38,472 bases of DNA from an uncultured Candidatus Saccharibacteria bacterium (lineage in GTDB: Bacteria > Patescibacteriota > Minisyncoccia > Phycocordibacterales > XYD1-FULL-46-19). Of the stretch, positions 185-19,906 are shown one piece after another. How positions within the stretch are numbered: position 1 is the first letter of the stretch; the number at the start of each line of letters is the position of its first letter. The notes beneath the pieces were generated by a model that saw only the letters and a program-made list of their open reading frames with translations, had not been told where the DNA came from and ran no database searches. The stretch lies in contig CAYSSL010000002.1 in assembly GCA_964433715.1 (NCBI GenBank), forward strand, positions 1 to 38,472, in the 5' to 3' direction. The position numbers and the translations under genes were made by a program.

Positions 185-730
185 ATGATGGAAAAAGAAT
201 ATAAAGCTGGTTTTTCTTTGCTGGGCGTCATAGCTTTGCTTGGTGTTGTTTGTATTATTGTTTTGGTTGGGTATAGGTATAAAGATAATGTTGACCTAGA
301 TGATGAACGAGATATTTTACTGTCTATTGATAAGTGGCGACAAAAGATAGAAGCTGAAGAACAAGATGATCTTGATATTGCCAATAAAAAAATCAATAGC
401 GCTAGTACTACTGTTTCTAGAGGTAGTTTTGAAGATTATGATATTGATAAATTGCCAAACTATGCTGATCGGAGAATAATTCTTTTTTTCTTTGCGGCGT
501 GGAGCGAGTTTTCGCGTGATTTAGCCCTAGATATTGAAACAAATAGGGATCAAATACCGCTTGATGTAATAATTTTGAAAACAGATTTTGACCGGCGCCT
601 ATCTCTAAAGACCAAATACGGTGTATTAAAGGAAAATACTTTTGTCCAGATAGACGAAAATGGTCAGTTGGTTAAAAAATGGGTGGATAGTAAAAATTTG
701 GAAGAAATAATTTTAGAATTAAAATCATGA
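185..730 (+). CDS. membrane-anchored thioredoxin-fold protein with a degenerate active site (WSEFS in place of WCxxC)
   Basis: The N-terminal TM is GFSLLGVIALLGVVCIIVLVG. The C-terminal region IILFFFAAWSEFSRDL...KTKYGVLKENTFVQIDENGQLV follows the thioredoxin/TlpA pattern. The first ATG in the ORF is at 185 (the track start at 161 is TTG). The stop overlaps the rsmE start as ATGA. Confidence 0.5.
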   Translation: MMEKEYKAGFSLLGVIALLGVVCIIVLVGYRYKDNVDLDDERDILLSIDKWRQKIEAEEQDDLDIANKKINSASTTVSRGSFEDYDIDKLPNYADRRIILFFFAAWSEFSRDLALDIETNRDQIPLDVIILKTDFDRRLSLKTKYGVLKENTFVQIDENGQLVKKWVDSKNLEEIILELKS

Positions 731-1416
731 GGTTACATAGATTTATTGGTAGTTTTGATTTAGATAAAAAATCAATTCAAATTACAGATTTGGATTTGAT
801 TCACCAGTGGCGAAAGGTTTTACGTTTATCGGTTGGCGATAATATAATACTGGTAAATCAAGATTTAAAAATAGAAGCTAAGGCTAAGATTTTAAATTAT
901 TATTTAGATGGGGCAGAGGTAGAAATTGGTGAATTGAAAAAGGTGACTAGTGAGCCTAATACTCACCTTACTTTGTATTGTGCTGTTCTTAAAAAAGAAA
1001 ATTTTGAAATAGTGGTTCAGAAAGCTACCGAAGTGGGGGTGTCGGAAATAGTTCCAATAATGACGGAGCGGACGGTTAAACAGGGTTTGCGTTATGATCG
1101 CTTGAAAAAGATTGCCATGGAAGCTGCGGAACAGTCGGGGCGGGCGGTGGCGCCGGCTATTAGAGAGGCCATAGAATTTACTCAGGCAATACCAGATGGT
1201 GGTGAAAACTATTTTTTTCATACAGTAAACGACAACACCCCCACCTTTTCACCCAACAGTGAAAAGGTGGGGGTGTTTATTGGTCCCGAAGGTGGCTGGA
1301 CGGAAGCTGAGGTGGCACTAGCTCTAGAGAGAGGTTTTCATTTGTGTTCACTGGGACCAAGAGTTTTGCGGGGTGAGACAGCAGCGATCGTTGCTTGTTA
1401 TTTGGCCACTTTGTAA
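727..1416 (+). CDS. rsmE: 16S rRNA (uracil1498-N3)-methyltransferase RsmE
   Basis: N-terminus is MRLHRFIG. The C-terminal SPOUT motifs FIGPEGGWTEAE and LGPRVLRGETAA are present. Length of 229 aa is typical. Confidence 0.85.
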   Translation: MRLHRFIGSFDLDKKSIQITDLDLIHQWRKVLRLSVGDNIILVNQDLKIEAKAKILNYYLDGAEVEIGELKKVTSEPNTHLTLYCAVLKKENFEIVVQKATEVGVSEIVPIMTERTVKQGLRYDRLKKIAMEAAEQSGRAVAPAIREAIEFTQAIPDGGENYFFHTVNDNTPTFSPNSEKVGVFIGPEGGWTEAEVALALERGFHLCSLGPRVLRGETAAIVACYLATL

Positions 1417-1982
1417 GCAACCAATTGTCCAATATCACCAGCTGAACCGGTAGCCTCGCCTTCAATGCCGGTAGCATTTCCTGATAGATTAGAGACATTT
1501 CCCGAGATATTGGTAACATTGCCAGAAAGATTGCTGACGTTCCCGATTAGTTTGGTAACATTGCCAGAAATATTACTTGTGTTGCCGATGATATTGGAGA
1601 TGTCACCAACTAGGTCAGATACTTTACCATTTATATTGCTGGTGCGACCGCGAATATTGGTCACGTCACCTTCTAGTTGAGTTGTTTTGCCTACGATTCC
1701 GGACACATCACCCGATATTTTAGAGACATCACCAATAAGTCCGGAAACGTCACCGCGAATATTGGAAATGTCGCCCATAATATTGCTGGTATCACCAAAA
1801 ACGCCAGATATATCTCCACTTATTTTTGAGACATCACCGCTAATCCGGTGCAAATCGACATCACCCGATATTTTAGAGACATCACCTTTGATATCAGAAA
1901 AGTCACCCCATATGCCATGGTGAAGGCCGCGTACATTTTTAGTGTTAGTGTTCGCGCGGTGAACTATTTCGTCTAGGCTCAT
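1398..1982 (-). CDS. heptapeptide-repeat protein of unknown function, with about 23 tandem G-[DN]-[VIT]-[ST]-x-[IL]-x units and no signal peptide or TM
   Basis: The 194-aa ORF has a 25-aa head (MSLDEIVHRANTNTKNVRGLHHGIW). It is followed by GDFSDIK GDVSKIS GDVDLHRIS GDVSKIS GDISGVF ... GNVSNLS GNVTNIS GNVSNLS GNATGIE GEATGSA GDIGQLV. The frame stays open across a strict 21-nt periodicity. The antisense ORFs are repeat shadows. Confidence 0.75.
   Translation of the reverse strand: MSLDEIVHRANTNTKNVRGLHHGIWGDFSDIKGDVSKISGDVDLHRISGDVSKISGDISGVFGDTSNIMGDISNIRGDVSGLIGDVSKISGDVSGIVGKTTQLEGDVTNIRGRTSNINGKVSDLVGDISNIIGNTSNISGNVTKLIGNVSNLSGNVTNISGNVSNLSGNATGIEGEATGSAGDIGQLVAYKVAK
1419..1907 (-). repeat. 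in-frame 21-nt (heptad) tandem repeat array inside the CDS, including a 29-nt exact duplicate
   Basis: The array has 21-nt periodicity and is interrupted once by a 27-nt unit. The exact 29-mer acatcacccgatattttagagacatcacc occurs at 1705-1733 and at 1858-1886. Confidence 0.9.
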
Positions 1983-2011: not shown

Positions 2012-2041
2012 ATTATAATGCAATTCATTAATCAGAGCCAA
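2012..2041 (-). promoter_or_regulatory. candidate sigma70-type promoter for the heptad-repeat gene
   Basis: On the minus strand, TATAAT is the reverse complement of 2012-2017. TTGGCT is the reverse complement of 2036-2041, giving an 18-nt spacer. The promoter lies about 30 nt upstream of the ATG at 1982. The -35 element is weak. Confidence 0.25.
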
Positions 2042-2359: not shown

Positions 2360-2776
2360 ATGGAAGAAAAAACTATTATCGGTCGCTCGGAGTATATTGA
2401 CCTACCGAGCTTTAATATGTATGCTGTGCCGGCCAAGATTGATACTGGTGCTTATCGGGGTGCTTTACACTGTCGGGACATTAGGTTGAGTCCTGATGGG
2501 AAGGTTTTATATTTTAGACTTCTGGATGAGCGTCATCCAGAGTATAGCGACCAAGAACAGGCGCTGACAGATTTTGGTGTTGTACGGGTTAGAAATACCG
2601 GCAGTGATTGGCAAAATCGCTATAAAATAAAAATTGAAGTTGTTATTGCTGGTCAAAGTATTTTAACCGAAATGACTCTCACTGATAGAGCTGATATGCG
2701 CTTTCCGGTTTTAATTGGACGAAAAGCCTTGAAAAAGAGATTTTTAGTTAATGTGTCTAAAAAAATTAAGATTTAA
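2360..2776 (+). CDS. RimK-associated retropepsin-like protease (ATP-dependent zinc protease family PF05618, RimB-like)
   Basis: IGRSEYIDLPSFNMYAVPAKIDTGAYRGALHCRDI fits the family N-terminal signature (AKIDTGA). The gene is immediately upstream of rimK, which is the typical arrangement for this family. Confidence 0.7.
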   Translation: MEEKTIIGRSEYIDLPSFNMYAVPAKIDTGAYRGALHCRDIRLSPDGKVLYFRLLDERHPEYSDQEQALTDFGVVRVRNTGSDWQNRYKIKIEVVIAGQSILTEMTLTDRADMRFPVLIGRKALKKRFLVNVSKKIKI

Positions 2777-2789
2777 AAAAGATTTCTAT

Positions 2790-3713
2790 ATGAATATTGC
2801 GATTTTATCTACTAATCCAGACTTATATTCTACGAAGAGACTTTTGGAGGCTGCCGAAAACAGAGGTCATCAGGCTACTATTATCAACCATACAAAATGT
2901 AACTTGATAATGGAAAAAGGCCGACCGGCGATAGAGGTGGGTGGTAAAGCTATTACCAATATTGATGCCATTATCCCTCGTATTGGTGCCTCGGTTAGTT
3001 TTTTTGGGGCGGCGGTTATTCGTCAGTTTGAAATGCTCAAAGTTTTTTCCTCATTGTCTTCAATTGCCTTGGTGCGGTCGCGCGATAAACTGCGCAGTCT
3101 TCAGTTGATGTCAAAATTTGGATTAGGTATTCCCAAATCAGCTTTTGCTAAATTTCCTAAAGACCAAGATGTGGAAAATCTGATTGAGCAGGTTGGGGGC
3201 GCACCGGTTATCATAAAAGTTTTGCAGGGTACTCAGGGCTTGGGTATCGTTTTGGCTGAAACTACCAATTCCGCCAAATCAATGGTGGAAGCTTTTTCTG
3301 GGCTACGTCAAAATATTTTAATTCAAGAATTTATTGAGGAGGCTAGGGGAGAGGATATTAGAGCTTTTGTTGTTGGTAATGAGGTGGTGGCCGCTATGAA
3401 GCGGATTGGTAAAAGTGGAGAGTTTCGCTCTAATCTGCATCGAGGAGGGGTAGCTGAACCAATTACTTTATCAAAAAAAGAAAAAGCGGTTGCTCTTGAG
3501 GCGGCCAAGGCAATGGGTCTATCTATTGCCGGCGTAGATCTTTTACAGTCTAGTCGCGGCATGCTCGTAATTGAGGTAAATTCGTCGCCTGGTTTGCAGG
3601 GTATTGAACGGGCCACCGGTGTTGATGTGGCTGAAAAAATAATTGAATTTATTGAAGCGGGGATGAGAAAGCGAAATCTAACCAAAAAGAAAACCCAAAA
3701 AAATATTCTTTAG
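2790..3713 (+). CDS. rimK: ribosomal protein S6--L-glutamate ligase RimK (ATP-grasp)
   Basis: MNIAILSTNPDLYSTKRLLEAAENRGHQ is the canonical RimK N-terminus. The ATP-grasp core is present (PVIIKVLQGTQGLGIVL, EDIRAFVVG, GVDLL...LVIEVNSSPGL). ATG at 2790 is preferred over the track start at 2751, which would overlap the upstream gene. Confidence 0.9.
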   Translation: MNIAILSTNPDLYSTKRLLEAAENRGHQATIINHTKCNLIMEKGRPAIEVGGKAITNIDAIIPRIGASVSFFGAAVIRQFEMLKVFSSLSSIALVRSRDKLRSLQLMSKFGLGIPKSAFAKFPKDQDVENLIEQVGGAPVIIKVLQGTQGLGIVLAETTNSAKSMVEAFSGLRQNILIQEFIEEARGEDIRAFVVGNEVVAAMKRIGKSGEFRSNLHRGGVAEPITLSKKEKAVALEAAKAMGLSIAGVDLLQSSRGMLVIEVNSSPGLQGIERATGVDVAEKIIEFIEAGMRKRNLTKKKTQKNIL

Positions 3714-3724
3714 TCTTTGAACTA

Positions 3725-4267
3725 TTAATCAGTAGGTTCGTCTGGTCGTCGGCTAGCCAAAAATTCTCTTTTATATTCTTTTAGGATGACATCTTTTACT
3801 TGTTGGGGATGAGCGGCAAAGCGAATAATAAATTCGTTTTGTTCGCCAGCTGTTTGGACGTGGAGGTGTCCGTAGTCTAAAAGGGTAGGTAAAAATCCGG
3901 GTACTTTTATGGTAACGTCTTGGATGTGATCTAGTCTAAAGGTGGAAACTTCTCTGTGAAATAAAGATTTCTGATCAATATCAATTATTTTTTGGTCGGT
4001 GATAATCCAAACATCTAAATAATAATCAGTCCAAATTAGAAAAAAATATATCCAGACCAACAAAAGCCAAATCATATAGAAAAAACCACCAAAGTAAAAT
4101 AATTTGGGTGACAGAGAAAGATCAAACCACATTATAAACATCAAAGCTATCACAATAGGAGCGAGGCCGGCTAAAAGAGATCCGATGGCCTCGATTAGAA
4201 AAATAAACCAATGTTTTCGCACCTCCAATAGAGATCTTTCGTTTATGTCTAGACTGACGTTTTTCAT
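3725..4267 (-). CDS. membrane protein with a bacterial PH-like domain (YdbS/YdbT-like, bPH_2)
   Basis: Two TM helices (FIFLIEAIGSLLAGLAPIVIALMFIMWF and FYFGGFFYMIWLLLVWIYFFLIW) are followed by TDYYLDVWIITDQKIIDIDQKSLFHREVSTFRLDHIQDV...HLHVQTAG. The ATG at 4267 overlaps the upstream stop as ATGA, so it is preferred over the track start at 4330. Confidence 0.6.
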   Translation of the reverse strand: MKNVSLDINERSLLEVRKHWFIFLIEAIGSLLAGLAPIVIALMFIMWFDLSLSPKLFYFGGFFYMIWLLLVWIYFFLIWTDYYLDVWIITDQKIIDIDQKSLFHREVSTFRLDHIQDVTIKVPGFLPTLLDYGHLHVQTAGEQNEFIIRFAAHPQQVKDVILKEYKREFLASRRPDEPTD

Positions 4268-4497
4268 ATAGCTGAAAAGAGGGTGATAAAAAATATCATT
4301 CCCCCAAATATTAAAAGTAGAGCCAGACAATAAACGGCCTCAGCAAAAATTGCAGTTTGTCCGCCAGTGCTGAAATTGCGCCAATGATAAGCAAATATCC
4401 AACTCATAATGGCTGTATAGATGAGACTGATGCCAAATATTGCCCACAGGTGCGATGGCTCGACCACTAACATAAAAGAATCCAATATGTTAAGCAT
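4264..4497 (-). CDS. small (77 aa) integral membrane protein, translationally coupled to the downstream bPH gene
   Basis: It has three hydrophobic segments. Its TGA stop (4264-4266) overlaps the ATG (4265-4267) of the next minus-strand gene. Confidence 0.45.
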   Translation of the reverse strand: MLNILDSFMLVVEPSHLWAIFGISLIYTAIMSWIFAYHWRNFSTGGQTAIFAEAVYCLALLLIFGGMIFFITLFSAI

Positions 4498-4584
4498 TGG
4501 TTTGATTATAACAAACAGGGGGCTTTCGTGGCTATGTTTAAAACTGTATAATTGTTTTAGCCTTAATTAAGGTTAATATAAAAA

Positions 4585-5067
4585 ATGTTAAGCAAAAAAA
4601 GGGCGGTAAAATTTATTTTAGTGGGGTTTATTATCTTGTTGCTAGTGATACTAACCACAGTTTCTTGGTTTAGTATTTTTTATGAGCCCAATGATGGTGA
4701 GGCATTACTAAATCAACGGGTGGGTTTTGTTAGGTCTGTCTATGAAGGCAAGACTGGATTTTATGTTGTAGTAGATGATTCAGCTTCGGTTTTGTCTGAG
4801 TTGTGTAGTCGTGATTCTATCTCTAGGCCCGAATGCGACGACTCTAGTTCTAGAACATTGGCGGGGACACGGGAAGTTAAATTATCCCAGCGAGTTTCTT
4901 TTATTACTTATAATGATGAGGGGAAGAAAAATGTTCACCACTATTCACCAAGGAGACTAAAAAGTGTTTTAAATGAAGACCTGTCTTTCCAAGAAATCCC
5001 TTTTATTATATCGGTGAAAAATGATATGGTGACCGAGGTGGAAGAAATTTATGATCCACTGCTGTAG
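4585..5067 (+). CDS. hypothetical N-terminally membrane-anchored protein
   Basis: The 160-aa ORF starts MLSKKRAVKFILVGFIILLLVILTTVSWF, a signal anchor. I recognise no family. It is the first of four tightly spaced plus-strand genes (4585-7315). Confidence 0.5.
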   Translation: MLSKKRAVKFILVGFIILLLVILTTVSWFSIFYEPNDGEALLNQRVGFVRSVYEGKTGFYVVVDDSASVLSELCSRDSISRPECDDSSSRTLAGTREVKLSQRVSFITYNDEGKKNVHHYSPRRLKSVLNEDLSFQEIPFIISVKNDMVTEVEEIYDPLL

Positions 5068-11390: not shown

Positions 11391-13415
11391 TTGGAAAAAA
11401 TTAATCCACGATCTAATTTTAAGGCTAGCCTTAGTGGTATTACTTCTAGGGGGTATTTTGTGTGTGTTTTGGCAATCATTACCCTGATTATTGGGGTAAG
11501 CTATTTTGTTTTCAATGGTAATTTTAGTAATTATAATCAGTTTTTAAGCCCAAAATCTTTTTCGGTTGTAAAAAAGTTTCCGGATTTTAGTAATTATAGT
11601 GGCTGGAGAGATATAAAATTAGATTCACAAGATCCTTCTTCAATTTGGATCTTGGGTGGTGGAATACTCCACTATGATCTCAAGAAAAATGTGGTGAATA
11701 AAATTTTGGCAGGAGATGATGGAGTTCAGGATGTGCCGATATCAATTGTGCATATTGGCGATAATTTATTCTATAGTTTTCAGGGTGGAATAGAAAAAAT
11801 AAACTTAAAAAATGGTAAGACTAAATTGTATGGACAAAAAAATGGTTTGGTGTCCGAAAGTAATGTTTATCTCCATCTGGATCCTTATGATAACGATGTT
11901 ATCTGGATAGGAACTTTTAAGGGATTAAGTAAATTTAGTATTTCCAAAGAAACTTTTACAAATTTCACCGATCAAATTGGTACCAATTCAACTCATTTTG
12001 GTATTGATGACAACGTTAGAGTGGGTAAGGATTATGTTTGGGTGGTAGTATCTGCCAATGCCTATAGTGAGGGTGGTATTGCGCGTTATGATAAGCGCCA
12101 AAAAGAATGGAAAGCTTGGGGTCCAGAATATTTTGGCAGTGTCGGTCGCGTTGATATTATGGCGTTTGATATTGATGAGGAAAAAGCTTTTGCTTTTGTT
12201 TCTGATTCAGATAACATTTTTGAATATGATCCAGTGACCAATTCTTGGCAAACTATTTATGATGGTGATCGGATGGTGTCAAATTTTTCTTTTTTAGTTT
12301 TTGCTAATAATCGAGTTTATTTTGCCGAAGATGATGTAAAAAACTCAAAAATGATGAATATTAAGTATGTTGATTTAAAAACTAATAAATCTTTAATTTG
12401 GCGCAATTTACCACGTGGTAATTTTGATGTTGATAAATCTGAAAAGCGAGCGATTATCTCATTTTATTCGTATGAGCGTAATTTGTCGGATCATAAATTG
12501 GGAGTAATTGATTTTAAAGATTTATCAACCACTGATTATTTAGTGGACATAAAGGATGACAATCGTCTCATATTTAACGAATCTTTCAAAGATGTTGTAT
12601 TGTTTGAGACTCGTGGTTTTTTATATCTTTACAATAAAAAAAGTAATATCGTAAACAAGATTCCCGAAATCAATTTAGATAGTAACTCTTTGTTCGCTGA
12701 GATGGTTGATGACAAGCTCATTATTTTTAATCTAGATATTCAAGAAATTGGATGGATGGGCGATAAACCAAATACTATTTATGTGATTGATCCTATTAGT
12801 TTAGAGGTTGAGAATAAAGCCGTTATTAATTCTGGTGAATATGATAATATTTCTTACGATAAAGAAATAAAGGAGTTAATCCTTAGTAAAATTCAAGGTC
12901 CAAATAAAATTATTATGTACCACATATCTTCAACTAAGGTCTTAGAGGCTGTGGGTGATAATAAGCTAGATAACGATGAACTGATGATTGTACCCGAAGC
13001 CGAACATTCTAAGTATTATGGCGTGGGTAAAAATTCTCTAGATGTTTTACTTGATGATGGCGTTACGGTGAGAGCCCCGATGTATGTTAATGGTGACACC
13101 TTCCAACTTGTGGTTACTAAAGATGGGATAAATTCCTCATCCTCGCCAATCATGGTTGCTCCCGCTCGTATTAGTCCTTTTGGTTATCCATCAAGTATTG
13201 ATATTAAAACAATAGATTTAGATGATAAAAATTCTTCGGTGGTTTGGGTTGGGACAGATCGTGGTCTAGTTCGTTATGATATTAATAATCGTGAACAACG
13301 ACTTTTTACAATTGAGGATGGTCTAATTGGTGATGATATATTAAAGATTGATGCTGGTGAGCGGTTTATTATTAAACACACTGTTGGGGTCTATGTTTAC
13401 GATATAAAGGATTAG
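11391..13415 (+). CDS. membrane-anchored beta-propeller-like protein with two-component-regulator-propeller (Reg_prop) type repeats
   Basis: The anchor is YFVCVLAIITLIIGVSYFVF. Two repeats fit the pattern GL....V.....D....W.GT..GL: GLVSESNVYLHLDPYDNDVIWIGTFKGLSKF and VWVGTDRGLVRYDINNREQRLFTIEDGLIGDDILKI. The start is uncertain. It could be TTG at 11391, or GTG at 11460, which has AGGGGG 6 nt upstream. Confidence 0.6.
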   Translation: MEKINPRSNFKASLSGITSRGYFVCVLAIITLIIGVSYFVFNGNFSNYNQFLSPKSFSVVKKFPDFSNYSGWRDIKLDSQDPSSIWILGGGILHYDLKKNVVNKILAGDDGVQDVPISIVHIGDNLFYSFQGGIEKINLKNGKTKLYGQKNGLVSESNVYLHLDPYDNDVIWIGTFKGLSKFSISKETFTNFTDQIGTNSTHFGIDDNVRVGKDYVWVVVSANAYSEGGIARYDKRQKEWKAWGPEYFGSVGRVDIMAFDIDEEKAFAFVSDSDNIFEYDPVTNSWQTIYDGDRMVSNFSFLVFANNRVYFAEDDVKNSKMMNIKYVDLKTNKSLIWRNLPRGNFDVDKSEKRAIISFYSYERNLSDHKLGVIDFKDLSTTDYLVDIKDDNRLIFNESFKDVVLFETRGFLYLYNKKSNIVNKIPEINLDSNSLFAEMVDDKLIIFNLDIQEIGWMGDKPNTIYVIDPISLEVENKAVINSGEYDNISYDKEIKELILSKIQGPNKIIMYHISSTKVLEAVGDNKLDNDELMIVPEAEHSKYYGVGKNSLDVLLDDGVTVRAPMYVNGDTFQLVVTKDGINSSSSPIMVAPARISPFGYPSSIDIKTIDLDDKNSSVVWVGTDRGLVRYDINNREQRLFTIEDGLIGDDILKIDAGERFIIKHTVGVYVYDIKD

Positions 13416-16682: not shown

Positions 16683-16817
16683 ACTCTTAAGCTAATTTTT
16701 GTCCAGTATACTGTAATCTGTCAACTTATCCACTTACTGTGTAAAATACGCTTATTTTCAGGTTTAATTTGCTTTTAAAATAGAATATAATTATAGGTGA
16801 ACCAAAGTGTCTGTACT

Positions 16818-18245
16818 ATGGATTTTTCTCCTATATCACCATTATATTCGTCTAAAGATTATCCAGAAGGATCTGATCTTTATGGTCGCACCGAACATCT
16901 AGAAGATGATTTGGCATCTATACCTTGTCGTAGCCTAGATAAAATTGGCCGATTTGTTGTTTTGCCGGCAATAAAAGAATCTCATCAAAATTATTTAGTA
17001 CCAATTGCTGGTCTGATTTTGGCGCTGACATTGCTCAGTACTACCGAGATGTTGTCGGATAAACTTGCGATACTTAATCTCTCTCGTCAAAAGGCGGAGG
17101 GTCATCTATCTTTAAACCTTCCTAAAATTTCTCTACCATTTGAAAGTGACGAACTTTCGGCTTCTTTGTCTGTTTGGGCTAAAGGTTTCGATGCTGGCTG
17201 GCTAGAAACCAAGGGCGCTTGGAAAACATTTTGGGTAGAAGAAGTGTTACCTCTTTCTCCCGCTAGAAAGAAGATAGAAATTAGTCACAGATTGCCAACT
17301 GGCGCTGGACTCGCTTTAGTGGAAAGAAGTTTATCTTCGCCTTGGCCTCAGACGGTGGCCACTATTAGTGACCTGCGGACAGATATTAGGTCGGTGGTCG
17401 GACAAATAAATTATTTCAGTCAGCGTCCGGTTTGGGCTATAAGTGACGCTTTATTGTTGGCTGATCATAATATTACTCTAGCGGTAGAAACTGGTCAGAT
17501 AGTTACCGAAAGATTTAGTAGGGGGGTTAGCGAACTTGCTTTGGTTTCAACAAAGGTTGAATTAGCTAGCCGACATCTTTTAGATAAAAATGTGGCTTTG
17601 GTTGGGTCAGCTACTTTGAGTGTTAAACAAGCTTCTCTATTGGCGACAGCCCAGCTGGCCGCTACCGATCTTTTTGTGCGTAATACTACTTCAGATTTTG
17701 TATGGGTGGCCGACTTTGCCGACAAAGCTTTAATGGCCGCCGCCGCCGAGAGTTTGTCGGGTGCCGATCAAGCCTTCCAAGCTATTTGGTACGGCGTGCC
17801 TCGTCTGGTTATTGCTGGTTATGAGAAAGTGGTGGGGATAATGGCTGAGTTTTGGTTTAATGTTAAATCAAACTGGCTCAATTTCTTTTCTGGTAATTCG
17901 GCAGACACCAGCAACTTAGCTGGTGACGCTTTGCGTGAGCAAATAAGGCAAGAAGTTTTAGATGAATTGGAGCTGGAATTTTCTGGTGTCTTTGATCGCT
18001 TGCGCGAAGGACAACCTACGGTGATTCAGGAGCCGATAGGAGGTAAAAGTGGTGTGGTGGTTGTACCTGAAGGTAAAACGCCGGAAAGTAGAGCGGTGAT
18101 TCAGGGGCGGCTAGAACAAATGTTTTCTGATCCAGTAAAAGTACGCTTTGATCAGGGTGGAAACTCTGGTGTTATTACACCAGAGTTTCGTGAGCAACCG
18201 GGTGATAATTATATATTTCTTCTAACTCCTATTCAGGATAAATAG
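16818..18245 (+). CDS. hypothetical single-pass membrane protein, first gene of the four-gene envelope cluster
   Basis: A long ORF with one TM (LVPIAGLILALTLLSTT) about 60 residues in. The following region is Ala/Leu-rich and probably helical, and the C-terminal roughly 90 residues look beta-rich. I recognise no family. The start is either ATG at 16818 or GTG at 16797. TATAAT at 16786-16791 favours the ATG. Confidence 0.55.
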   Translation: MDFSPISPLYSSKDYPEGSDLYGRTEHLEDDLASIPCRSLDKIGRFVVLPAIKESHQNYLVPIAGLILALTLLSTTEMLSDKLAILNLSRQKAEGHLSLNLPKISLPFESDELSASLSVWAKGFDAGWLETKGAWKTFWVEEVLPLSPARKKIEISHRLPTGAGLALVERSLSSPWPQTVATISDLRTDIRSVVGQINYFSQRPVWAISDALLLADHNITLAVETGQIVTERFSRGVSELALVSTKVELASRHLLDKNVALVGSATLSVKQASLLATAQLAATDLFVRNTTSDFVWVADFADKALMAAAAESLSGADQAFQAIWYGVPRLVIAGYEKVVGIMAEFWFNVKSNWLNFFSGNSADTSNLAGDALREQIRQEVLDELELEFSGVFDRLREGQPTVIQEPIGGKSGVVVVPEGKTPESRAVIQGRLEQMFSDPVKVRFDQGGNSGVITPEFREQPGDNYIFLLTPIQDK

Positions 18246-18248
18246 TTT

Positions 18249-19136
18249 ATGCGGTTTTTTTATTTTTTTACACTATTTTTTGTTGCTTTATTTTTTTTAA
18301 ACACATCGTTAGCTATTGCTCAGGCTAGCCCCTTCTTTGCTGTGTCTCCCACTAAAGCTGAGTTGTGGCTGGCACCCGGTGAGACAGGTGATAAGGTTAT
18401 TACCATTGCCAATAATTTAGGAGGGGCCGCTCGGTTCACAATTACCGTTGAAGATTATGTAGCTTCGGGAAACGGCCTAAAATTATTAGGCCAAGAAGAT
18501 GGTGTTTATTCATTAAAATATTACATTCAAACTCCCCAGTCTTTTGTCTTGGGTCAAGGTGAAAAATATGAATTGCCAATAACTATTAGTTTGCCAGCTA
18601 ATGCCCCAATTAATAGTCTTCATGCGGCGGTGGTGGTGGAGGGGCAAAGGTTAAATGAAATTAGGGGAGCGGCGCGAGTCTCGTCACGTATTGCCGTGCC
18701 GTTTTTTATTCGGGTAGAAGGTGAGGCAAAAGAACAAGGTAAATTACAAAAGTTTGCTCTCACCGGTGGTCCCATTCAGATATTGGGTAATAATTTAAAC
18801 GCTTATATTTCTTTTAAAAACTTTGGCACTACCTATCTCAACCCATATGGTTATCTGGAAATTAAAAACCTGCTATCACAAAAGGTGATGCGAGTCCCTG
18901 TTGATCCGTGGTTTATTTTGCCCAAATCTACCAGAACTAATGATATTGAATTGTCCCGTTTAAATTTATCGGGTCTTTACTCAATTACTTTATATCAAAA
19001 TCGTGGCTATGGAGATTTGATAGACAGTGATAGAATTTTTGGCCTGTTTATATCAAGATTAATCTTCGGCCTGCTGTCGTTGTTGGCTGTTGTCATAGTG
19101 ATGATGGTTATTATGTTAAAATTCAAGAATAAATGA
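18249..19136 (+). CDS. hypothetical cell-surface protein with a signal peptide, beta-sandwich-like region and C-terminal TM anchor (DUF916/DUF3324-like architecture)
   Basis: The signal peptide is MRFFYFFTLFFVALFFLNTSLAIAQA. FAVSPTKAELWLAPGETGDKVITIANN...FTITVEDY...ELPITISLPANAP fits Ig-like strand patterns. The C-terminal anchor is IFGLLSLLAVVIVMMVIMLKFKNK. The stop overlaps the next gene's start as ATGA. Confidence 0.6.
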   Translation: MRFFYFFTLFFVALFFLNTSLAIAQASPFFAVSPTKAELWLAPGETGDKVITIANNLGGAARFTITVEDYVASGNGLKLLGQEDGVYSLKYYIQTPQSFVLGQGEKYELPITISLPANAPINSLHAAVVVEGQRLNEIRGAARVSSRIAVPFFIRVEGEAKEQGKLQKFALTGGPIQILGNNLNAYISFKNFGTTYLNPYGYLEIKNLLSQKVMRVPVDPWFILPKSTRTNDIELSRLNLSGLYSITLYQNRGYGDLIDSDRIFGLFISRLIFGLLSLLAVVIVMMVIMLKFKNK

Positions 19137-19906
19137 AAAATCAATTAACCATTGTTCTAATTATTTTTCTTGGTTTATTGCCAATCGGCCGAGTGGCTTT
19201 GGCTTATGTTGCCGAGAGTAGTAATTACCGTCTGGAGTCTGACAGTATAAACTTTGGTGGGGGCGAAATGTCTAGTTCTGCTTCTTACAGCTTGAGTGAT
19301 ACCTTTGGTGAGGTGGGTACGGGTGAATCTTCTTCATCAAATTATAACCTTCATGCTGGTTATCGGGCTATGGAGGTGGGAGCAGGTGGAGCTGGGGTGG
19401 AGGCAATATCTTTATCATCTCCGTCCGACATTTCTTTGTCTGAAATATCTAGTTCTGATGGTGGTAGTAGTAGTGGTTCTGGAACATGGACAGTGGTAAC
19501 CACTAACGGCGATGGTTATGAATTAACTGTTCGGTCGGGAACGGAGCCGGCTCTAAAGAGTAACAATAGCCAGTTTTCTGATTATGCCCCAAGTGGTTCA
19601 GCTCCTGATTTTTCTTGGCTGACGGACCTAGATGGAGCGATTTTTGGTTTTACAGCTGAAGGAAATGATATTGCTACGCGCTATAAAGATAACACTAGTG
19701 CTTGTGGCACTGGTTCAAGTGATACGACTGATGCTTGTTGGGATGGTTTGTCGACCTCTGATCGTGCCGTCGCTTCTCGTTCCAGCGCCACTTCAGGTAG
19801 TGGTTCTGATACGGTTATGAAATTTAAGGCTGAAATAGGTAGTGACTCCGATTTAGCTGCGGGGAGTTATGAGGCTAATATAATAGTAACAGCTACTACT
19901 TTATAA
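19133..19906 (+). CDS. hypothetical secreted Ser/Gly/Thr-rich protein
   Basis: The signal peptide is MKNQLTIVLIIFLGLLPIGRVALA. An S-x-[NS]-Y-x-L motif occurs three times (SSNYRLESD, SASYSLSD, SSNYNLHAGY). The C-terminus AGSYEANIIVTATTL resembles terminal strands of fibre or pilin-type beta proteins. Confidence 0.6.
   Translation: MKNQLTIVLIIFLGLLPIGRVALAYVAESSNYRLESDSINFGGGEMSSSASYSLSDTFGEVGTGESSSSNYNLHAGYRAMEVGAGGAGVEAISLSSPSDISLSEISSSDGGSSSGSGTWTVVTTNGDGYELTVRSGTEPALKSNNSQFSDYAPSGSAPDFSWLTDLDGAIFGFTAEGNDIATRYKDNTSACGTGSSDTTDACWDGLSTSDRAVASRSSATSGSGSDTVMKFKAEIGSDSDLAAGSYEANIIVTATTL

Follow-up and report, generated by a model that had tools for sequence, protein, structure and literature searches.

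A fixed-length array of glycine-started heptads in a Patescibacteria protein and its possible fold as a coiled-coil rod

Contig CAYSSL010000002.1 of an uncultured Candidatus Saccharibacteria bacterium (assembly GCA_964433715.1), analysed here over positions 1 to 38,472 (the window; 38,472 nucleotides), carries on its minus strand, at 1398-1982, a complete coding sequence for a 194-residue protein that consists almost entirely of seven-residue units, each opening with glycine. A first-pass annotation made from the DNA letters had described this open reading frame (ORF) as a 25-residue head followed by a run of such heptads, had assigned it to no family, and had offered two structural readings, a beta-solenoid and a glycine-containing coiled coil. 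The locus raises the question of whether so repetitive a frame is a gene at all and, if it is, what fold a protein of this composition adopts. We found that the heptad gene is genuine and under purifying selection and that the number of units, as well as the identity of each unit, is fixed across the clade. With regard to the fold, the array is most likely a trimeric coiled-coil rod, some 24 nm long, that has glycine at heptad position f, a reading to which we assign a probability of about 0.5.

The ORF list and the parsing of the protein into units confirmed the head and the glycine-started units at this position. The head (residues 1-25; 1908-1982, minus strand) contains the columns N13-T14 and H21-x-x-I24-W25, which are invariant in the orthologue alignment (A2), and leads into the array as hHxxhWG[DN]F; its last residues, GLHHGIW (19-25), directly before the array, look like an additional, degenerate unit. 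The array itself (residues 26-188; 1419-1907, minus strand) comprises 23 units with the consensus G-[DN]-[VI]-[ST]-x-[IL]-x, namely 21 heptads, one nine-residue unit, GDVDLHRIS (residues 40-48; 1839-1865, minus strand), which corresponds to a heptad plus two residues, and a terminal unit, GDIGQLV, that merges into a short tail. Among the 21 heptads, position 1 is G in all; position 2 is D in 11, N in 6, K in 2, R in 1 and E in 1; position 3 is V in 11, T in 4, I in 3, A in 2 and F in 1; position 4 is S in 15 and T in 6; and position 6 is I in 13, L in 6, V in 1 and S in 1. The regularities originally proposed (invariant glycine at position 1, a hydroxyl residue at position 4, and Ile or Leu at position 6) are borne out by this parsing, with S or T at position 4 of every heptad and I, L or V at position 6 of all but one of the 21. 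The 194 residues include 31 glycines and 25 serines. Tandem Repeats Finder detected a 21-nt period only in the most regular stretch of the array, and the repeat is thus far better kept as protein than as DNA. No hydrophobic N-terminal stretch could be read from the protein sequence, in agreement with the earlier statement that signal peptide and transmembrane segment are missing, and a cytoplasmic location is the default assumption. An exact-sequence look-up did not find the window protein on record.

A scan of one genome per GTDB species identified full-length orthologues in five Patescibacteria assemblies (51-74% identity), which are labelled Candidatus Vogelbacteria, Saccharibacteria or Patescibacteria group; a metagenome scan added further orthologues, for a total of about 40 from Patescibacteria genomes and metagenomes at 47-74% identity. 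The five genome orthologues align to the window protein with zero gaps across the whole array. Among the 43 complete ORFs recovered, 42 are full length (187-204 residues, nearly all 187-195), the remaining ORF of 57 residues being left out of the array analysis. The search of related genomes and metagenomes that had been proposed as a check on the gene returned an intact frame and a constant unit number in about 40 orthologues, from loci L006-L010 and L050-L096, that align gap-free. Synonymous sites are saturated (proportion of synonymous differences, pS, 0.6-0.9), with a proportion of nonsynonymous differences (pN) of 0.13-0.36, and the orthologues and this substitution pattern together rule out a spurious ORF.

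Conservation statistics were calculated for 37 distinct sequences (the window protein and its orthologues) with 814 unit instances. Glycine occupies position 1 in 100% of unit instances, being found at all 23 expected unit starts in 35 of the 37 sequences, with a single substitution in each of the other two. Position 2 is D in 56%, N in 27% and E in 6%; position 3 is V in 56%, I in 15%, A in 11%, T in 6% and P in 2%; position 4 is S in 54% and T in 32% (S/T, 86%; S/T/A/G, 92%); position 5 is N in 38%, G in 21% and K in 10%; position 6 is I in 50%, L in 41% and V in 6%; and position 7 is variable. The nine-residue unit is located identically in every orthologue, as G-D-[VIL]-x-[LIV]-[HY]-[KRH]-I-x, and individual heptads also have signatures of their own; for example, unit 17 has N at position 2 in 97% of sequences, while unit 10 has D or E at this position in 100%, with Ser dominant at position 4. 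Units that keep their own identities across orthologues indicate that the array is not being homogenised. By the same comparison, the charge gradient that had been described along the window protein, from GD-type to GN-type units, holds for units 17 and 19, which have N in 84-97% of orthologues, but not for units 16, 18 and 20, which are mostly D/E; the gradient is only partly conserved and mostly lineage-specific.

An exact 29-nt duplicate, which had been taken as a sign of recent recombination or expansion of the array, is present at 1705-1733, where it encodes GDVSKISGDV (residues 84-93), and at 1858-1886 (residues 33-42), and exceeds every repeat found in 500 synonymous-codon shuffles (mean 12, maximum 24). 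While the duplicate is thus real, recent expansion is not supported, as unit number is identical in about 40 orthologues; because unit number never varies, the duplicate points to intragenic conversion involving units 2 and 9, not to a gain or loss of units. In one orthologue (L009, 4186-4221), a 36-nt exact tandem duplicate spans two adjacent units and is a sign of local conversion or of very recent unit copying with total unit number unchanged. In a metagenome contig (L011, coverage 0.57), the orthologue at 146-679 is called as a gene of 95 residues (P0064); by tblastn, residues 1-181 of the window protein align over these positions, and the shortening of P0064 is probably due to a sequencing or assembly frameshift.

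The proposal that the array forms a coiled coil starts from its 3-4 hydrophobic spacing, position 3 being mainly beta-branched (V/I), with V, I, A, L or F at position 3 in approximately 90% of unit instances and I, L or V at position 6 in 97%. Two profiles were compared with the PDB, A1 representing the family and A4 made from nothing but 55 eight-unit arrays; the top match of both was the helical core of the P22 tail needle gp26 (4lin; E 2.7e-7 for A1 and 1.2e-7 for A4), followed by SlaB (8qox), cavin, fibritin and reovirus sigma-1; neither profile matched a beta-solenoid or gp5 in the PDB. As judged by these profile matches, every one of the closest solved sequences is a trimeric coiled coil. 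The aligned stretch of gp26, GRVTTAEGEIASLQTNVSALDGRVTTAE, carries the same G-x-[VI]-[ST]-x-[LA]-x pattern, and the aligned fibritin segment, KGNISSLQGDVQALQ, likewise has an outward G, then V or I, then S or T, then L or A. Olia and co-workers (2007) reportedly placed the aligned gp26 stretch in the helical core, which is reported to be continuous over residues of about 60-140. Solved structures therefore contain such heptads as helix.

Both P22 gp26 (2poh, 3c9i, 4lin) and the last coiled-coil segment of T4 fibritin (1avy, 1aa0) are trimeric fibres, and, as the top PDB matches of the family profiles, they have heptads of the form G/x-x-[VI]-[ST]-x-[LA]-x in common with the window protein, including a Gly that recurs at the outward position and S or T after the first core residue. 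They differ from it in that Gly occurs in some heptads only and helix formers (A, E, Q) are common, whereas Gly opens all 23 units of the S/N/D/T-rich window protein; furthermore, they are virion parts with other domains, whereas the window protein is bacterial and stand-alone, and its neighbourhood is free of phage genes. Closely similar heptads were also found in P0063, a protein that combines arrays of GDVTTLQ/GNVTTLQ with 10 YadA_stalk matches and a YadA_anchor domain, and which is on these grounds a trimeric autotransporter (trimeric autotransporter adhesin, TAA); its array matches gp26 at E 4e-13. The arrays in this stalk contain heptads (GDVTTLQ, GNVTTLQ, GDVSNIA) identical to those of the heptad family, and the left-handed coiled coils of TAA stalks are polar and compositionally unusual (daTAA, PMC2373917), S/T/G/N-rich coiled coils of unusual composition being documented in prokaryotic fibres (PMC2373917). 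By contrast, the TAA arrays are short (6-8 units, compared to 23), the window protein is without the signal peptide, neck, head or membrane anchor of a TAA, and TAAs are described as adhesins of proteobacteria, while the window protein comes from a Patescibacteria lineage. In P0054, G-heptads alternate in phase with ordinary coiled-coil heptads (GDVATLK EDVSTLK EGQARLE ... GNVSNLM). Finally, an AlphaFold2 (AF2) model of the window protein (md3baab2489de) predicts a single long alpha-helix over residues 111-173 (units 13-21; 1464-1652, minus strand), with a predicted local distance difference test (pLDDT) score of about 90.

A number of observations weigh against a coiled coil over the whole array. 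In the AF2 monomer, residues 26-110 are neither helix nor strand (pLDDT about 75), and the array of a distant relative, P0014, is likewise neither helix nor strand (pLDDT about 77) in an independent AF2 run with a different alignment. Gly, a helix breaker, is present in every heptad, and the composition of the array (G, S, N, D, T, V, I) has a low helix propensity; on the other hand, some Gly at the corresponding position is tolerated in the solved coiled coils of gp26 and fibritin. Outward positions f and b of coiled coils usually vary, whereas here the Gly that would be at f is conserved in 100% and the S/T that would be at b in 86% of unit instances. Pro is found at position 3, the proposed core position a, in 13 of the 814 unit instances, falling in units 4, 8, 11 and 13 of several orthologues, and Pro-containing eight-residue units are the commonest irregularity of the wider family. 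A charge-complementarity test did not detect g-to-e' charge pairing and gave no signal either way, and the PDB and family matches are all weak and repeat-driven. The nine-residue unit bears on the same question, as a nonad interrupts a trimeric coiled coil with a local beta-layer whose middle position is a small A or V (Hartmann et al. 2016, PMC4786415). The length of the window 9-mer fits a nonad, but its middle residue would be K, R or H rather than a small A or V, so that a beta-layer is only a possibility here; AF2 places a 3-residue helical turn at residues 44-46. Of the structural checks called for by the first-pass annotation, the AlphaFold model has a helix at residues 111-173 and neither helix nor strand over 26-110, and Foldseek returned no neighbour.

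The alternative that deserves most attention, although we consider it unlikely, is a beta structure based on the seven-residue unit, either a solenoid formed by one chain, with two or three heptads to each coil, in which the hexapeptide signature [LIV]-(x)-G-x-x-[STAV]-x would be extended by one residue, or a triple-stranded beta-helix of intertwined strands such as that of the T4 gp5 spike. The corners would be occupied by Gly, with S/T of position 4 and I/L of position 6 pointing inward, which would suit an invariant Gly and a position 4 that is small (S/T/A/G) in 92% of units, as well as the tolerance of Pro at position 3 in several orthologues; eight- and nine-residue units, many with Pro, would resemble loop insertions. 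The two independent AF2 models that deny helix to GD-type units (pLDDT 75-80) point in the same direction, as do relatives rich in Cys, Gly and Pro (P0059 with GDCSNLT; P0066 with GDMSGCS and GNVGPVS) and a weak match of a TAA-type array to a gp5 beta-helix fragment (4jiv, E 0.006). However, DSSP sees no strand or bridge in either AF2 model, and V3 and I6, being three residues apart, would point to opposite sides of a single strand; no super-period of 14 or 21 residues is visible, and the array profile matches only coiled coils in the PDB. Foldseek searches with both models against the PDB and BFVD returned nothing with an E value below 0.8, and thus no solenoid or beta-helix, which indicates that the non-helical stretches are not recognisable solenoids either. 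Known repeat classes fare no better, as no Hexapep, pentapeptide, bactofilin, YadA_head or Gp5_C model matches even at E up to 10. The left-handed beta-helix (LbH; Pfam Hexapep) has a similar order of small residue-x-aliphatic-Gly, but has a period of 6 rather than 7 and, at E up to 10, no hidden Markov model (HMM) match, and strands are not predicted here; pentapeptide repeats, bactofilin, RTX nonapeptides and collagen (periods 5, about 18, 9 and 3, compared to 7) are absent from the Pfam scan; YadA_head/Hep_Hag, with its 14-residue NSVAIG-S repeat, has no match, and the window aliphatic residue is found two before Gly rather than directly before it; and T4 gp5 (Gp5_C, octapeptide VxGxxxxx) differs in period, has no Pfam match here, and is missed by the array profile in the PDB. 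The initial exclusion of hexapeptide, pentapeptide, collagen and bactofilin folds, which had been argued from the period of 7, is therefore upheld by the HMM scans. With regard to the two structural readings initially offered, the glycine-containing coiled coil has become the better supported one through the PDB profiles, P0063 and the AF2 helix, while the beta-solenoid retains a minor share of the probability; a broader form of it, under which the heptad is an undescribed seven-residue beta fold used as a fixed-length protein in Patescibacteria and as a rapidly length-varying early protein in phages, we regard as marginally more doubtful still.

It is improbable that the array is largely disordered or marginally structured, i.e., a flexible, polar low-complexity spacer or platform that would order only on a partner. 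Low helix propensity, the abundance of Gly and Ser noted above, the lack of regular secondary structure in AF2 for half of the protein, and the failure of Foldseek to find a structural neighbour would all be expected for such a protein, but its length, register and each single unit are conserved over about 40 orthologues despite saturated synonymous sites, the hydrophobic positions 3 and 6 are strictly kept, and pLDDT values of 75-90 exceed those usual for disordered regions. A repetitive precursor of a ribosomally synthesised and post-translationally modified peptide (RiPP), like the TigB-type precursors modified by radical-SAM enzymes, came into consideration through a weak match to NCBIfam RiPP_TigB (NF047709; E 3.5e-5, 23.7 bits), and has a negligible probability. 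This score is far under the 70-bit cut-off, no radical-SAM or maturation gene was found within the 19 kb scanned rightward or in orthologous loci, the conserved gene looks like a transcription unit of its own and is surrounded by housekeeping genes, and a protein of 194 residues with unit-specific conservation is unlike a leader-plus-core precursor; we rejected this candidate on account of the low TigB score and the lack of a maturase nearby.

Under the coiled-coil reading, the protein would be soluble, and its 23 heptads would form a parallel, probably homotrimeric, alpha-helical rod in which V/I of position 3 and I/L of position 6 provide the core (a and d, respectively), while Gly takes the outward position f, D/N takes g and S/T takes b. 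At about 0.15 nm for each of some 160 residues, the rod would be roughly 24 nm long. The conserved 9-mer near the N-terminus could be a local discontinuity, a hinge or possibly a beta-layer, and the head, HxxIWGDF, may act as a cap or nucleation element. A surface lined with Gly, Ser, Thr and Asn would be open to lateral self-association or partner binding. Since a fixed unit number and unit-specific conservation are combined with elongated repeats, a rigid rod of defined length appears to be the most economical mechanism, and such a protein might function as a fixed-length rigid spacer or scaffold; helical structure over the whole array, the trimeric state and this structural function are each put forward as predictions. 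What makes the protein worth this attention is that Patescibacteria genomes are very small and yet this clade keeps a 194-residue protein with 23 units conserved singly and in constant number, which suggests a structural role that depends on length, such as that of a ruler, spacer or scaffold.

The absence of an assignable family, as initially reported, was corroborated by model searches, the window protein staying below the cut-off of every Pfam, NCBIfam, PHROG and PADLOC model. The sub-threshold family matches are all to alpha-helical, mostly trimeric coiled coils, which favours the coiled-coil reading; they comprise LPP (the Braun lipoprotein zipper), Baculo_PEP_C, DUF1664, DUF948 and Laminin_II in Pfam, SlaB in NCBIfam, and the PHROG families 'minor head protein' and 'tail needle' (phrog_1219). 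A word-indexed protein search identified 56 relatives, all unnamed or annotated as 'hypothetical', and an exhaustive search of representatives returned 2377 clusters at E <= 1e-3, a figure that is not a family size since it mixes true relatives, defined here by the shared invariant-Gly heptad, with generic coiled coils. Across 200 wider-family proteins, successive units are spaced by a multiple of 7 in 92% of cases, the chief irregularity being an eight-residue unit, often with Pro (e.g., GKVHPTLT). The head motif HxxxWG[DN] recurs in the distant relatives P0004, P0006, P0014, P0071, P0121 and P0174, and other relatives include the large multi-array proteins P0057 and P0058. P0071 (377 residues) has an HxxxWGD head and a heptad array fused to the four CxxCxGxG-like motifs of a DnaJ-type zinc finger and to a hydrophobic C-terminal region.

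A subfamily of small proteins of about 100-250 residues opens with MKKxL..YYYKDGxKIxGVHxxIxGD, continues with 7-40 heptads, and closes with GDLDxCxITxEERxxGIxIxDLI, the variant G[DN]LDxCxITxEERxxG[IV]xIxDL[IV] ending the arrays of P0014, P0010, P0011, L016, L036, L041 and others. AF2 models the C-terminal motif as three short helices, and the N-terminal motif YYYKDGxKIxGVH is hairpin-like; neither motif has a database model. These small phage and metagenome proteins share the heptad with the window protein as well as a related head motif, G-x-H-x-x-h-x-G-D, but carry a conserved C-terminal motif that the window protein is without; P0014, with a window-type head (GLHDGVWGN) and a phage-type tail, links the two groups. 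While viral contigs scanned with protein patterns from the window protein and P0014 yielded no relatives, a degenerate three-unit DNA pattern identified 38 viral stretches in IMG/VR, often with two to four tandem paralogues. In readable viral neighbourhoods, the heptad genes are located in early or replication regions and not among virion genes; for example, the order in L022 is primase, Sak4-like annealase, SSB, three heptad genes, helicase and RecE-like exonuclease, P0003 is near DNA polymerase A, homing endonucleases and a methyltransferase, and the heptad gene of MW202691 is near SSB. Among cultured phages, matches were found only in tail-fibre, adsorption, minor-head and 'YadA-like' proteins, as would be expected for a coiled coil. 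L022 (3766-4905) and the near-identical L025 (minus strand, 3558-4970) have three tandem paralogues each, two of which differ by whole unit blocks (151 vs 207 and 103 vs 138 residues), a clear polymorphism of repeat number; the number thus changes readily in phages but is fixed in the Patescibacteria gene. The small phage genes, tandem paralogues of varying unit number in replication/recombination modules, thus differ from the bacterial gene with its fixed unit number, and a fixed length in bacteria set against fast change of repeat number in phage early genes suggests different functions for the two groups.

The heptad type itself is already known from phage fibres and autotransporter stalks. 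By contrast, a stand-alone family with Gly in every unit appears undescribed in the libraries and literature searched, as do its capping motifs, its strict length conservation in Patescibacteria and its length-variable phage early-gene relatives; neither a described heptapeptide beta-helix nor the motif itself was found in the literature. The family is widespread and absent from database models, and the heptad marks a large number of proteins of phages, DPANN archaea and metagenomes that carry no annotation, such that its description would allow for annotation of many 'hypothetical proteins'. It also probes the limit of Gly, Ser and Asn content in coiled coils; if the coiled-coil reading is wrong, the array would represent a new repeat fold.

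The gene is convergent with rsmE (727-1416, plus strand; Pfam Methyltrans_RNA, E 1e-42), and the 19-nt overlap of their 3' ends that had been noted at the outset is present (1398-1416). The TATAAT-type promoter candidate reported earlier exists as the promoter-like sequence TTGGCT-18-TATAAT (2012-2041, minus strand), the end of its -10 hexamer being 26 nt from the ATG, but it is a consensus match only, and such sites are no more frequent here than in shuffled sequence; TATAAT-like or TGTTATAAT sites are found at comparable distances in orthologues. Adjoining the promoter upstream, at 2040-2068, a G+C hairpin (TCCCC-TAT-GGGGG) between an A-run and a T-run resembles a bidirectional terminator, and a comparable hairpin with T-run is found upstream of the orthologues in L006, L007, L008 and L051. 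In the window and several orthologues alike, a terminator-like hairpin and then a -10-like element stand ahead of the gene, so that the heptad gene looks like a separate transcription unit. No co-directional gene ends at the 2040-2068 hairpin, either in the window or in L006.

Gene order is kept among orthologous loci, with a small membrane protein and bPH_2 upstream and a thioredoxin-like gene and the convergent rsmE downstream. Window neighbours include rsmE, a thioredoxin-like gene, RimK and its partner protease, bPH_2, BacA, pyruvate kinase, deformylase and formyltransferase, and this neighbourhood points to no pathway. A role as a virion fibre was rejected for the window gene because its neighbours (rsmE, RimK, BacA, pyruvate kinase, deformylase) are housekeeping genes. 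An Rfam scan of the whole window returned nothing, and several long ORFs at 11391-13415 and 16797-19906, of 674, 482, 295 and 257 residues, have no Pfam match at E <= 1e-5. Finally, RimK (ATP-grasp) and a 'Zn_protease' are inverted between the bPH_2 and heptad genes at 2360-3713 of the window and in the same way in L006, whereas the pair is missing from that position in L007 and L008, which makes it a clade-specific insertion or loss.

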